Virus record (IMG/VR): IMGVR_UViG_3300035670_000636
Location: 1-37,759 of that record
Origin: a virus
Taxonomy: Duplodnaviria > Caudoviricetes
DNA: 37,759 bases
Strand: one strand, 5' to 3'
A model generated the notes under the pieces. It saw only the letters and a program-made list of their open reading frames with translations, had not been told where the DNA came from and did no database searches. Of the stretch, positions 24,839 to 28,752 are shown piece after piece (positions within the stretch are counted from its first letter, which is position 1; every line of letters starts with the position of its first letter). The position numbers and the translations under genes were made by a program.

Positions 24839-24873
24839 TTGACGCTTGCTCTTTGCATTGCGATAATCTCATC
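24839..24873 (+). promoter_or_regulatory. Sigma70-type integrase promoter with an operator overlapping the -10 box
   Basis: TTGACG(24839-44)-N17-GATAAT(24862-67); operator ATTGCGATAATCTCATC at 24857-24873; AAGGAG SD downstream. Confidence 0.7.
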
Positions 24874-24895
24874 ACAACAAACAAGGAGTTGAGTC

Positions 24896-25852
24896 ATGGC
24901 AATCAAGAAACGCGGCGACGTCTACTGGATGGACGTCATGATCAACGGCACGCGCATCCGCGAGTCGCTCAAGACTGGCGATGAGAAGCAGGCCCAGGAG
25001 CTGCACGACATCCGCAAGGCCGAGCTCTGGCGCACCCGGCTGCTCAAGGAGCGTCCCAAGAAGACCTGGAACGACGCCACCAAGCGCTGGGTCCTTGAGC
25101 GCGGCCACAAGCGCAGCATCAGCGACGACAAGGACAAGATCCGCGTCCTCGAGCCGGTGCTGGGCAAGAAGCTGCTTGCAGACATCGATCGCGACACGAT
25201 CGAGGACTGCCTGCCCCAGGACGTCAAGCCGGCCACCCGCAACCGCTACCGGGCCCTGATCCGCGCCGTCCTGCGTGCGGCCGAGCGCGAGTGGGACTGG
25301 ATCGACCGCTCGCCTGCCCTGCGCATCGAGGCCGAGCCCAAGCGCCGCGTCGCGTTTTTGACACGCGATCAGGCTGACGTTTTGATTGCGTCGTTACCGG
25401 ACAAATACCGGTCGCCCGTCCGTTTCGCTTTGCTCACCGGGTTGCGCAAATCGAATGTCTTCGGTTTGTGCTGGGAGAACGTAAACCTTGCTCAAGGAAT
25501 GGTGATCGTTCACGCCGATGAGGCCAAGGCCGGCGAGCGCATCCTGGTCCCGCTCAATAGCCAGGCCAAGGCGATGCTCGAGGCGATCCCTGAGCCGCGC
25601 CAGGGCCTGGTATTCGGCAAGATCGAGCGGATCTCCCCCAGCGTCTGGGAGCGCGCCTGCAAGAACGCTGGCGTGCCCTGGCTGCGCTTCCATGACCTGC
25701 GCCATACCTGGGCCAGCTGGCACGCCATGGCCGGCACGCCGCTGTCAGTGCTGCAGGAGCTGGGCGGCTGGCACTCGGCCGAGATGGTCCGCAAGTACGC
25801 TCACCTGAGCCCTGAGCACCTGGCGGCCGCGGCCGAGAAAGTCACCCTGTAA
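24896..25852 (+). CDS. int: Tyrosine recombinase / phage integrase
   Basis: Catalytic TGLRKSN, FHDLRHTWAS, LGGWHS, RKYAHL; N-terminal arm-binding-like beta domain; adjacent att sites. Confidence 0.95.
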   Translation: MAIKKRGDVYWMDVMINGTRIRESLKTGDEKQAQELHDIRKAELWRTRLLKERPKKTWNDATKRWVLERGHKRSISDDKDKIRVLEPVLGKKLLADIDRDTIEDCLPQDVKPATRNRYRALIRAVLRAAEREWDWIDRSPALRIEAEPKRRVAFLTRDQADVLIASLPDKYRSPVRFALLTGLRKSNVFGLCWENVNLAQGMVIVHADEAKAGERILVPLNSQAKAMLEAIPEPRQGLVFGKIERISPSVWERACKNAGVPWLRFHDLRHTWASWHAMAGTPLSVLQELGGWHSAEMVRKYAHLSPEHLAAAAEKVTL

Positions 25853-25862
25853 CCGGATGCGT

Positions 25863-26085
25863 TGTCACGTTTTTGGCACAATCCGGGGCGACCAAGGCCA
25901 GGGTTGCGAGAGGGGATCTCGTAACCCATTGATTTGGCGGAAGGGGTGGGATTCGAACCCACGGTACAGCAATGCTGTACACCGGATTTCGAATCTGACC
26001 GGGCGAAAAAACCCTCCGAATATCAATGGGCCACCACGGGCTGTGCAGGGTTAATGGCACAGCTTTCGACACGTTTTTGACACAC
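25863..26085. other. attP1: arm sites, IHF site, tRNA-Ser core and triple arm sites
   Basis: Arm repeats TGTCACG 25863, TGGCACA 25874, then TGGCACA 26055, CGACACG 26067, TGACACA 26079; IHF consensus AATCAATGGGTTA on the minus strand at 25922-25934. Confidence 0.8.
25935..25995 (-). tRNA. 3' half of tRNA-Ser(CGA) (attP1 core; not a complete tRNA)
   Basis: Minus strand GATTCGAAATCCGGT-GTACAGCATTGCTGTAC-CGTGGGTTCGAATCCCACCCCTTCCGCCA: anticodon loop CGA, long variable arm, T-arm, G discriminator and CCA; D-arm and 5' acceptor strand absent. Confidence 0.85.
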
Positions 26086-26103
26086 TCATTGAGAGGAAGA
26101 TTT

Positions 26104-26436
26104 ATGAAGCAGCAACACACACCAGGGCCGTGGGTCGTTAGCCACGGATACGACGGCTCAATTTCAGTTAATAGCGCTAACCATGTGCGCCTCAATTTGA
26201 CGACAGCGTGCAAGGTAGTCGTAGCTGACATTTGCAAGCATGAAATGGCCGAGCACTTCAGCGCTGATGCGAACGCCCGATTGATCTCAGCCGCCCCCGA
26301 TCTACTAATAGCGCTACAGGACGTTTGCGCCGTGCTGATGCATGGAGGCGTCAGTCATAACGCAAGCAGTCCAGATCGAACCGCTCTAAACCAGGCCCGC
26401 GCCGCCATCGCCAAGGCGACAGGAGGTGAGGCATGA
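26104..26436 (+). CDS. Phage accessory hypothetical protein (cassette gene 1)
   Basis: GAGAGGA SD; HTPGPW...ANARLISAAPDLL...ARAAIAKATG family motifs. Confidence 0.75.
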   Translation: MKQQHTPGPWVVSHGYDGSISVNSANHVRLNLTTACKVVVADICKHEMAEHFSADANARLISAAPDLLIALQDVCAVLMHGGVSHNASSPDRTALNQARAAIAKATGGEA

Positions 26437-26747
26437 GCACCGACCGCGAACTACTTGAGCTGGCTGCCAAGGCGGCTGGAATTGAACTGATGCAAGGAAT
26501 TACTGAAGACCGACTGCTCAATTCGGCAACTCGGAATTTATGGAACCCGCTAATTGACGACGGCGATGCGCTGCGGTTGGCGGTGAAGCTGGGCATGGAT
26601 GTTTGCTTCGGAGCCAATTACGTCATCGTGCGAGGCTCCGTCCAAAACCCCCTTGTGAACAACGCAAACGACCCCTACGCCGCCACCCGCCAAGCCATTG
26701 TCCGGGCTGCTGCTGAGATCGCTAAGGCGACTGGGGGTGAGGGATGA
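26433..26747 (+). CDS. Phage accessory hypothetical protein (cassette gene 2)
   Basis: DRELLELAAKAAG...WNPLIDDGDALRLAVKL...ATRQAIVRAAAEI motifs; ATGA coupling. Confidence 0.75.
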   Translation: MSTDRELLELAAKAAGIELMQGITEDRLLNSATRNLWNPLIDDGDALRLAVKLGMDVCFGANYVIVRGSVQNPLVNNANDPYAATRQAIVRAAAEIAKATGGEG

Positions 26748-27115
26748 GCAATTTGAGACAAGCAGCGCAGCAGGCGCTGTGGGCGCTTGAGGACATCTTT
26801 GGAAAGGAGAAAGTTGATGTCGGAGCGATCAACGCCCTACGCGCCGCACTTGCGAAGCCTGAACAGGAGCCTGTGGCGGTGGTTCAAGACCTAGACGAGG
26901 TGAAGCGAAAGCGCCTTGTTTACGAACTGGGCTTTGATTGGAAGGACCCGCTTTACGCCTCGCCATTACAGCGCCAGCCGCTTTCAGACGGTTGGATCCT
27001 TGGCATGTGGCCCGACACCGGCTTCCCGCTTGAGGTCATCCGCTTCGCCCGAGCTATCGAACGCTCGCACGGGATAGGCGTTGCAAATGGCACAAGTCCG
27101 GAAAACATCAGTTAA
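26744..27115 (+). CDS. Phage accessory hypothetical protein (cassette gene 3)
   Basis: LRQAAQQAL..LE...LRAALAKPEQEPVA...PLY...FARAIERSHGI motifs; ATGA coupling. Confidence 0.7.
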   Translation: MSNLRQAAQQALWALEDIFGKEKVDVGAINALRAALAKPEQEPVAVVQDLDEVKRKRLVYELGFDWKDPLYASPLQRQPLSDGWILGMWPDTGFPLEVIRFARAIERSHGIGVANGTSPENIS

Positions 27116-27220
27116 TCAATGATTTATGCACCTGATTTTTCACGGCACGTTTTTGGCACAGCGCATGAAAAGTGCGTCAGAAATGGCGCACTGCATCATC
27201 GTCGTAAGTCATTGATTTTC

Positions 27221-27282
27221 TGGCGGAAGGGGTGGGATTCGAACCCACGTTGGGGCAGAAGCCCCAAACCGGATTTCGAATC
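27221..27282 (-). tRNA. 3' half of tRNA-Ser(CGA) with a different variable arm (attP2 core; not a complete tRNA)
   Basis: Minus strand GATTCGAAATCCGGT-TTGGGGCTTCTGCCCCAA-CGTGGGTTCGAATCCCACCCCTTCCGCCA; identical to copy 1 except the variable arm. Confidence 0.85.
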
Positions 27283-27291
27283 TGACCGGGC

Positions 27292-27316
27292 AAAAAAAAG
27301 CCCTGTAGATCAGGGC
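27292..27316 (-). terminator. Rho-independent terminator ending the late/lysis transcript
   Basis: GCCCTG-N5-CAGGGC hairpin followed by T8 on the minus strand, downstream of the holin. Confidence 0.7.
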
Positions 27317-27371
27317 AAATTACTTGAGGAGTCATCGCCGTGACACAGAGTCACGACACAATTTTGGCACA

Positions 27372-27785
27372 TCAGCGCGCGACGCCTTTGCCCTTCTCCC
27401 AGGTTCTCATCCCAGCAATTCCCAGCATACCGCTCAGGATCACCCACAGCGCCTCGGTATCGAGCATGGGTGGTGGCTTAACCTCCGCGGGCACGTAGCC
27501 CTCAGCCTGGGCCCAGGTCCAGGCCCAGACCAGCATCGGATAAAGCAGGAACTGGTAGGCCATGGCAGCTGCGCCTACCCAGCCGATCGCGGGCCTCCAG
27601 CCGGCCACAAACACGCTTGAGCTGGCCGCCTCAACCTTGTTGACCTCCATCTGCGCCAGGTCGGTCGCCTGGTCGATCTTGCGGCCCTCGAGCTCGAGCT
27701 GGATCCTTTCTTTATCGGTAGTGATCAGGTCGGACGCGACCTTGCCCACCGACTCGATGACGGTGCCTATGCCAAGCAGGTTCAT
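27372..27785 (-). CDS. Holin (GTA_holin_3TM-like)
   Basis: QMEVNKVEA.S.SVFVAGWRPAIGWV...LSGMLGIAGMRTWEKGKGV signature. Confidence 0.85.
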   Translation of the reverse strand: MNLLGIGTVIESVGKVASDLITTDKERIQLELEGRKIDQATDLAQMEVNKVEAASSSVFVAGWRPAIGWVGAAAMAYQFLLYPMLVWAWTWAQAEGYVPAEVKPPPMLDTEALWVILSGMLGIAGMRTWEKGKGVAR

Positions 27786-28285
27786 ATGACGTCTTGCAGG
27801 GTGCGGTTGATCCAGCCCAGGAGGAACTTCAGCTGGCTGCGATCGCGGGTCACGATGTCGCGATACCGGGCGATCTTGGCCAGGGCGTAAGCCATGACAA
27901 ACCGGCTTTCGTCGTAAGCATTCAGCGCGGCCAGCGTCTTGTCACCGATGACGCCGTCTGGCGTTGCACCGGCCACCAGCTGCGCGAGCTTGCGCGCCAC
28001 AGCGCCGGCATTGACGTGGAAGTCGAAGATCGTCTGCGCGATCACCTGGCTGGTGATCCTGTCGCCTTTGATCGGGTCCCAGTAGTTGGTCTTGTAGAAC
28101 TCGCGGACCATGGCTGCAGGCACTTCCTGGCCGCGGTCAATCAGGGCCCAGCCAGGCCACTGCGGGTTCATCTTGCGTGCGATGCCGGCGTAGGTTTGAC
28201 CGCCGCGATCGCCAGGCACGTCATGCAGCACGTAGCCGCCTTCGTTGCGGATCATGGCCTCGTAGGCCGGCAGGAAGTCAGCCAC
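27782..28285 (-). CDS. Endolysin, glycoside hydrolase family 108 with peptidoglycan-binding domain
   Basis: EGGY motif, DRGGQTYAGI, DGVIG..TL, FLLGWINR. Confidence 0.9.
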   Translation of the reverse strand: MADFLPAYEAMIRNEGGYVLHDVPGDRGGQTYAGIARKMNPQWPGWALIDRGQEVPAAMVREFYKTNYWDPIKGDRITSQVIAQTIFDFHVNAGAVARKLAQLVAGATPDGVIGDKTLAALNAYDESRFVMAYALAKIARYRDIVTRDRSQLKFLLGWINRTLQDVI

Positions 28286-28692: not shown

Positions 28693-28735
28693 AAAATCTC
28701 CGGCAGGTTGTCGTGGGTTGCGATTTATGTTTTGT

Positions 28736-28752
28736 GTAGCGATTATCGCATC
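28736..28752. promoter_or_regulatory. Putative 17-bp operator GTAGCGATTATCGCATC upstream of the lysis cassette
   Basis: Matches the shared motif; extra half-site GTTGCGATT at 28717. Confidence 0.5.

Follow-up and report, generated by a model that had tools for sequence, protein, structure and literature searches.

Organisation of the locus

The stretch of DNA analysed here (the window) is the whole of a viral record, a 37.8-kb contig of 37,759 nucleotides whose 127-nt terminal overlap indicates a complete circular genome. The phage is of a freshwater type, and its products match phage families for portal, terminase, capsid, tail-fibre, repressor, Sak4-like, Cas4-domain, resolvase, integrase, holin and endolysin proteins. 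The gene-family matches of the window include no conjugation family, and no excisionase family was found among the 45 window ORFs scanned, shorter ORFs lying outside that scan. The integrase gene (int) is the last of a rightward early block, and the lysis genes read towards it from the right; both attachment (att) sites lie in between. The features of the region are listed below, with L1 and R1 denoting the left and right arms of site 1, and L2 and R2 those of site 2.

24839..24867, plus strand: sigma70-like promoter consensus upstream of int, 10 of 12 matches
24896..25852, plus strand: tyrosine integrase, 318 aa (PHROG 1, E 1e-67; PF00589, E 1e-23)
25863..25880, plus strand: L1, a pair of arm-type repeats (motif)
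25901..25927, no strand assigned: 11-pair hairpin in L1, overlapping the IHF site
25922..25934, minus strand: predicted IHF consensus (motif) adjoining the CCA end of fragment 1
25935..25995, minus strand: tRNA-Ser(CGA) 3' half, allele 1, 100% identical over 61 nt to an intact host tRNA
25964-25981, minus strand: variable arm of allele 1; putative 7-bp overlap at 25987-25993
25996..26084, plus strand: R1, with an A-tract, an IHF-like word and arm repeats at 26055, 26067 and 26078
26104..26436, plus strand: cargo ORF1, 110 aa (phrog_1273, without annotated function)
26433..26747, plus strand: cargo ORF2, 104 aa (phrog_5086, without annotated function)
26744..27115, plus strand: cargo ORF3, 123 aa, its C-terminal tail overlapping L2
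27088..27160, plus strand: extended L2, with an arm site at 27088, an IHF consensus at 27114-27126 and an arm pair at 27143-27160
27171..27192, minus strand: weak hairpin followed by four T on the tRNA strand, missed by the terminator scan
27205..27217, minus strand: predicted IHF consensus (motif) adjoining fragment 2
27221..27282, minus strand: tRNA-Ser(CGA) 3' half, allele 2; variable arm at 27250-27268, putative overlap at 27274-27280
27283..27371, plus strand: R2, with a minus-strand terminator at 27300-27316 and arm repeats at 27341, 27354 and 27365
27372..28285, minus strand: holin and endolysin genes, converging on R2

The nearest integrases of cultured phages are about 40% identical to that of the window. 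The promoter consensus before int was seen once against 0.8 expected in shuffled sequence and is weak when taken alone. Positions 24859-24884, which overlap it, have a 77% identical copy in opposite orientation at 28725-28750, upstream of the lysis block, and this 26-nt repeat is possibly a shared regulator or promoter motif. The weak hairpin at 27171..27192 may be placed so as to terminate the transcript of a restored tRNA. ARAGORN reported no tRNA gene in the window, and an Rfam match to Plastid-psbl-rps4 was rejected, as it fell under the gathering score and was read as reversed similarity to tRNA-Ser.

An earlier note on this DNA had placed the two tRNA fragments and their surrounding sites correctly. 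It overlooked the three ORFs between them, the arm site at 27088, the IHF site at 27114 and the terminator present in the right arm of site 2 alone, and it did not recognise that R1, the ORFs and L2 together form a cassette of attL/attR type.

Two complete attachment sites

Arm repeats and IHF sites laid out around a core characterise the attP sites of phages such as lambda and P22. In the window, two such arrangements surround two tRNA-Ser(CGA) 3' halves in direct orientation, 1286 bp apart from start to start. The halves are identical in the 29 nt of the acceptor and T-arm part, in the anticodon stem-loop and in the next 9 bp, and differ in the variable arm alone, which folds as a 7-bp stem in both. 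The arm pairs end 54 and 60 bp to the left of the fragments, and the arm triplets begin 59 and 58 bp to their right. While the single arm 7-mer is unenriched in the genome (76 seen against 95 expected), the pair motif of two 7-mers separated by 4 nt occurs four times, always at the two sites, against 0.11 expected, and the IHF consensus occurs three times, always in this region, against 0.34 expected. The full layout described earlier at each site thus stands far above chance. The true spacers between these elements are unrelated, as had also been claimed, their identities of 43% and 36% being equalled by 744 and 955 of 1000 shuffles. Further, the distance from the overlap to the last arm site is 90-92 bp in all 18 core-anchored right arms, both window sites included, which argues that both sites keep a working geometry. 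The motifs thus support the view that both are full lambda-type attP layouts, with an adjacent integrase gene, arms on both sides and predicted IHF sites, and both hybrid sites, L1-core-R1 and L2-core-R2, are complete.

A pattern covering both alleles gave one match among GTDB representatives, allele 1 in an intact tRNA-Ser(CGA) beside serS in a betaproteobacterial MAG (L090/G001). Phage and host stay identical up to 2 nt beyond the anticodon loop (in the phage contig L011, up to the loop or 1 nt further), which points to the 7-nt loop as the overlap, the same at both sites. The 9 bp to the right of the core are shared by the two sites of the window and differ between phages.

Recurrence among related phages

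Among 80 of the 88 integrase relatives in the viral collection, whose DNA after int was compared with itself, a second att site for the same tRNA was found in six (L011, L008, L070, L071, L075 and L076). At least 2 kb follows int in 67 of the 80, and five of the dual loci are among these. L011 carries the same two tRNA-Ser(CGA) alleles as the window in the same order; L008 carries tRNA-Cys(GCA), with the second site truncated before the core; the other four carry 5' halves of tRNA-Ser(GGA) in two alleles, the integrases of L075 and L076 being identical. The two-site layout therefore recurs, which supports the dual-attP reading first given to this region.

The layout is found in four separate integrase lineages, that of the window included, each with a single-site sister (L003, L066, L006/L004 and L068). 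In a tree of 74 integrases of at least 280 aa, 62 were labelled (seven dual, including the window, and 55 not) and 12 with short flanks were left unlabelled; the dual label needs four changes, forced by the starred branches, and a clade uniting the integrases of the window, L011 and L008 is rejected (p-AU 8.5e-5). A further case, L118, came from a metagenome scan. It matches the window at 84% identity across L2, site 2 and the lysis genes and shares R1; its cargo is different, site 2 bears a third allele, and the 60 bp to the left of R1 contain no tRNA fragment. Decay of one site in relatives, which the earlier note had named as evidence against its reading, is thus seen in part: site 2 is truncated in L008 and L224, and site 1 apparently is incomplete in L118.

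Other searches bounded this set. An endolysin search gave a further set of 80 loci without a new two-site case, using a tRNA-half pattern that misses some Cys fragments; a scan for the Cys alleles returned nothing beyond three known contigs, and a search with the L070 integrase mostly returned contigs already found, together with a few distant new ones. L061 and L006 were rejected as dual since their second signals are not att sites, and the self-repeats of L054, L055 and L058-L060 were excluded, since these loci have another layout, in which attP adjoins a full tRNA-His gene.

Several variations were seen around the single-site loci. In a large integrase clade (many of L001, L002 and L020-L065), int and attP are separated by a complete tRNA-His(GTG) gene, and in five contigs of this clade a separate His 3' half follows 157 bp on. 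In L005, L009 and L010, int almost abuts the end of the holin gene, and the first 30 bp contain a single arm-like word and lack a tRNA fragment, so that attP looks lost and int intact. A conserved small ORF overlaps the int stop and runs into the left arm in L003, L012-L014, L016, L017, L034, L036, L061 and L066; lying between int and attP, within 270 bp after int, it is by position only a candidate directionality factor. In L068, L070-L072, L075 and L076, the fragment is a tRNA-Ser(GGA) 5' half, and the arm repeats are on the opposite strand relative to int.

Outer arms, inner arms and cargo

The outer and inner arms of the two sites are of different kinds. An L1-type pair occupies the same position after int in single-site relatives, and R2 resembles the single attP arm of L003, the closest relative by integrase, at 80% identity, against 61% for R1. 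A terminator stem of 6-8 bp is present in 13 of 13 R2 or ordinary single arms and absent from all six R1-type arms. R1 of the window is 89% identical over 56 nt to that of L118; to R1 of L011 it is 53% alike, which is background, and a pattern for the window-type R1 had no match in viral contigs. L2 of the window is 80% identical to that of L118 and 68% to that of L011, and is alignable in L008. In its extended form, L2 was seen solely beside cargo (the window, L118, L011, L008 and L224), was absent from all single-site phages searched, and is common to several integrase clades and two tRNA targets, Ser-CGA and Cys-GCA. Two further proteins (P0003 and P0004), among 120 of 366 matches, end in a tail like the one that overlaps L2 in the window.

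Between R1 and L2, which face inward as att arms, the three ORFs of the window are co-oriented, and none matches an integrase. ORF1 has a 79% identical homologue in an att-free accessory gene array (L216). The cargo of relatives includes a C5 methyltransferase (L008), an ART-PolyVal protein (L070, and more weakly L071), a GNAT-like protein below the cut-off (L075) and a PAPS-reductase domain (L004), the others being small genes of unannotated function. Close relatives with the same inner arms differ in cargo, as do the window and L118, and also L070, L071 and L075. A 33-nt stop/RBS/start junction ends both ORF1 and ORF2 (26407-26439 and 26718-26750) and recurs in L118 and L011; it is likely a crossover point for cargo shuffling. 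Small genes in the cassettes of L118 (951-1388) and L075 (6849-7097) resemble by eye those for HTH/excisionase proteins and had no Pfam match.

The search in bacterial genomes

Across 232 host-family genomes, which are incomplete, no cassette ends were found, three weak matches all lying inside cargo ORFs. Integrated relatives had been suggested as a way of learning which sites recombine; no close prophage was present in the 232 genomes, where the best integrases are 39-47% identical. An arm pair and IHF site in the phage geometry occur in four of the 232, three of them adjoining intact tRNAs, one with a whole integrase and two (G358 and G309) with its 3' part only. These junctions are distant relatives at other tRNAs, and they support the view that related integrases form real attL junctions with this arm-pair and IHF geometry at intact host tRNAs. 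At the G358 locus (L414), upstream of tRNA-Met, the att arm is accompanied by the last 26 integrase codons alone in recognisable form, and the gene before it resembles by eye that of a HipA-type toxin.

Origin of the two-site layout

The anatomy of the region, the crossover-bearing anticodon loop shared with the host tRNA and the recurrence of the layout with changing cargo are firmly seen. On balance, it seems probable that R1, the cargo, L2 and tRNA half 2 constitute an integrase-less cassette accreted into the attP of the phage, through which the phage integrase could insert, and which it could carry along or leave at a host tRNA-Ser gene. We read L1 and R2 as the ordinary attP of the family, and R1-cargo-L2 as a unit bounded by attL and attR and lacking an integrase. 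A single-site phage would have integrated at a tRNA-Ser(CGA) gene already holding an att-bounded remnant, and excision at the outermost sites would then yield a circle with the two hybrid sites. Integration is predicted through either of these. Later excision at the inner junction should yield a phage devoid of the cassette; the latter would stay behind in the host, where tRNA half 2 would complete the gene. The different alleles split the 61-bp repeat into 29 and 23 bp, which might slow the loss of the cassette by homologous recombination.

Several lines of evidence argue for accretion. The outer arm R2 is of the ordinary kind in its terminator stem and its likeness to the single arm of the nearest relative, while the inner arms are of another kind, R1 being stemless and the extended L2 confined to the side of cargo. 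L2 is shared across integrases that form no clade and across tRNA targets, the cargo differs under the same inner arms in close relatives, and the window and L011 agree fully in both variable arms despite diverged int genes. Moreover, attL-type junctions exist in hosts, two with a partial integrase, and a three-step accretion route has been outlined for ICE/IME-CIME tandems (PMC5704250). L1 with an R1-type arm would be sufficient, judging from L004 and L006, in which this combination is the sole site seen.

Against accretion stand the lack of free cassette ends and of a close prophage in the host-family genomes, and of an excision or host joint among those listed for six sequencing runs (below). 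R1 of the window does not align with that of L011; the single-site L068 pairs allele 1 with an IHF word like that of site 2, a combination not expected from clean insertion at the anticodon core; and one site is incomplete in L008, L224 and apparently L118. In addition, L004 combines one site with cargo, so that cargo beyond attP needs no cassette, and the homologue of ORF1 lies in an array free of att sites.

A fair rival, possible but doubtful, is that homologous recombination fused two single-site layouts: a phage of the L004 type, with attP before its accessory genes, crossed with one carrying attP after them via shared small genes, one site being now a redundant relic in the course of loss. 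Both single-site layouts do exist (L004 for the former; L003, L012, L016 and L066 for the latter), the 33-nt junction repeat in the cargo could have been the crossover point, and L008, L004 and L006 resemble a decay series from a truncated second site to none. However, none of the single-site phages searched has the extended L2 arm; the exact arm spacing and both tRNA alleles have been kept across about 40% synonymous divergence; and the 9 bp right of the core are common to both sites of the window while varying from phage to phage.

Another possibility, to be entertained tentatively, is that a family of phages with P22-like integrases maintains a standing cassette slot with two attP sites. 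Both sites would be active, the choice of site would set whether the cargo (methyltransferases, ADP-ribosyltransferases, acetyltransferases or small genes of unannotated function) remains under the int promoter in the lysogen, and inner excision would deposit cassettes at host tRNAs for other phages of the family to pick up.

It is improbable that the layout has been selected as a switch, with integration at site 2 keeping the cargo downstream of the int promoter in the lysogen and integration at site 1 cutting it off. The two prophage layouts anticipated in the earlier note do follow from the geometry, if both sites work; the promoter consensus before int and an R1 without a terminator stem are in keeping with such a switch, as are the C5 methyltransferase, ART-PolyVal and GNAT-like cargo of relatives. 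On the contrary, the hairpin in L1 may stop read-through, and some relatives have lost one site.

The variable arms and host range

It had also been proposed that the two sites form a two-host system, each serving hosts with a different tRNA-Ser allele. The window and L011 do hold the same two alleles in the same order, every two-site relative carries two different alleles, and allele 1 matches a real host. Such a role for the variable arms is nevertheless very improbable, since the crossover region is identical at both sites and the variable arm should lie outside it, and thus be unable to set the target. A pattern of the T-arm and anticodon loop matched 48 of 151 host-family genomes, once in each, with 17 variable arms and an invariant anticodon stem, the loop being fixed by the search pattern. 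Single-site phages show several alleles, and some with near-identical left arms (L083/L087 against L084/L088) differ in allele, which likewise indicates that the variable arm is easily exchanged and cannot set the target. Comparison of the fragments with host tRNAs, suggested at the outset, gave the exact betaproteobacterial match for allele 1 and none for allele 2, either in GTDB representatives, in the metagenome collection or, with up to three mismatches, in the 232 host-family genomes; the nearest in style is a GC-rich variable arm in G314. The third allele at site 2 of L118 also speaks against a two-host system.

Both variable arms (18 and 19 nt) are nevertheless unchanged between the window and L011, whose int genes agree at 75 of 128 four-fold sites (about 40% synonymous divergence). 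Under neutral drift, the chance of this is near 5e-5 for each arm, so the halves have been either selected as parts of a tRNA or recently exchanged with a host tRNA. If the cassette was accreted, the variable arms would be a record of the host tRNA last exchanged with each site, with no role in the choice of target.

Support from sequencing reads

The unitigs of four runs that contain the window sequence, all from one study that is probably, or at least possibly, the source of the contig, join both sites on one genome, as the read-level check proposed earlier would have it. In two of the four, a unitig passes from left arm 1 across the shared 29-mer and reaches the first base of variable arm 1, and in one a unitig is unbroken across all of site 2. 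The depth of the cassette is near that of the backbone, for instance 68-76 against 63 in run X2. Misassembly of two strains is thus extremely unlikely: although the shared 29-mer breaks most unitigs and all four runs belong to one study, both sites are bridged, the depth is even and L011, an independent contig, shows the identical layout. Among the joints listed for the contigs of six runs, there was no core-to-core joint removing the cassette and no host junction; contigs drop rare forms, and X5 and X6 consist of short pieces only. Joints from 25963/25966 to 27217/27220 were rejected as excision, being supported by 23-28 letters and read as tRNAs of other organisms.

Relation to known systems and significance

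The lambda b region holds accessory genes beyond attP, and the cargo of the window resembles it in this respect. Like the lambda-type attP sites that target tRNA genes, the sites described here combine flanking arm repeats and IHF sites with a putative 7-bp overlap located in the anticodon loop, and they carry a tRNA half by which the gene is restored; those phages differ in having, as far as is known, one attP each. Besides the pelagiphage preprint cited next, a further study reportedly describes phage fragments that restore tRNAs. The pelagiphages described in that preprint carry such fragments with one core per phage, sometimes beside a full tRNA gene (10.1101/410191). The 'two attP sites' of PMC11476347 belong to different elements and are not a precedent.

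The closest parallel is provided by the ICE/IME-CIME tandems of the ICESt1/ICESt3 model, for which PMC5704250 describes a three-step accretion and cis-mobilisation. As there, a unit with att arms and no integrase is arranged in tandem with an autonomous partner at a single tRNA target, and the composite has an internal chimeric att site and modular excision, the excision being a prediction in the present case. The cassette lacks an integrase and has inward-facing att arms at both ends, and the tandem at the same target with an internal att site is present in circular form, as two sites in direct orientation. Unlike in those tandems, the autonomous role falls to a tailed temperate phage, whose portal, terminase and capsid genes stand in place of a conjugative ICE or IME; the composite amounts to a whole circular phage genome, each site is of full attP type with lambda-type arms, and the cassette was not found alone in a chromosome. 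The cassette would therefore work like a CIME but is not classed as one. In the PAISt island of Streptomyces turgidiscabies, modular excision at an internal core has been shown, likewise with one tyrosine recombinase and an internal core copy that allows it; PAISt differs in being conjugative and chromosomal, with a core of 8 bp at bacA, and as described it has no phage attP with tRNA halves (PMC4057263).

The literature searched, mostly open-access papers, contained no natural phage with two attP sites for one integrase. The parts are known; their composite in complete phage genomes, recurring with variable cargo, was absent from that literature. Accretion of att cassettes lacking an integrase has precedents in chromosomes and in conjugative elements; here the same kind of composite recurs in complete phage genomes, its cargo changing from case to case. 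With a single integrase and two natural attP sites of different build, the window also offers a test of which arm and IHF sites govern the choice of site and directionality. If the proposed accretion is true, temperate phages would gain and drop accessory genes by a site-specific route, and the origin of integrase-less cassettes at tRNA genes would be explained.
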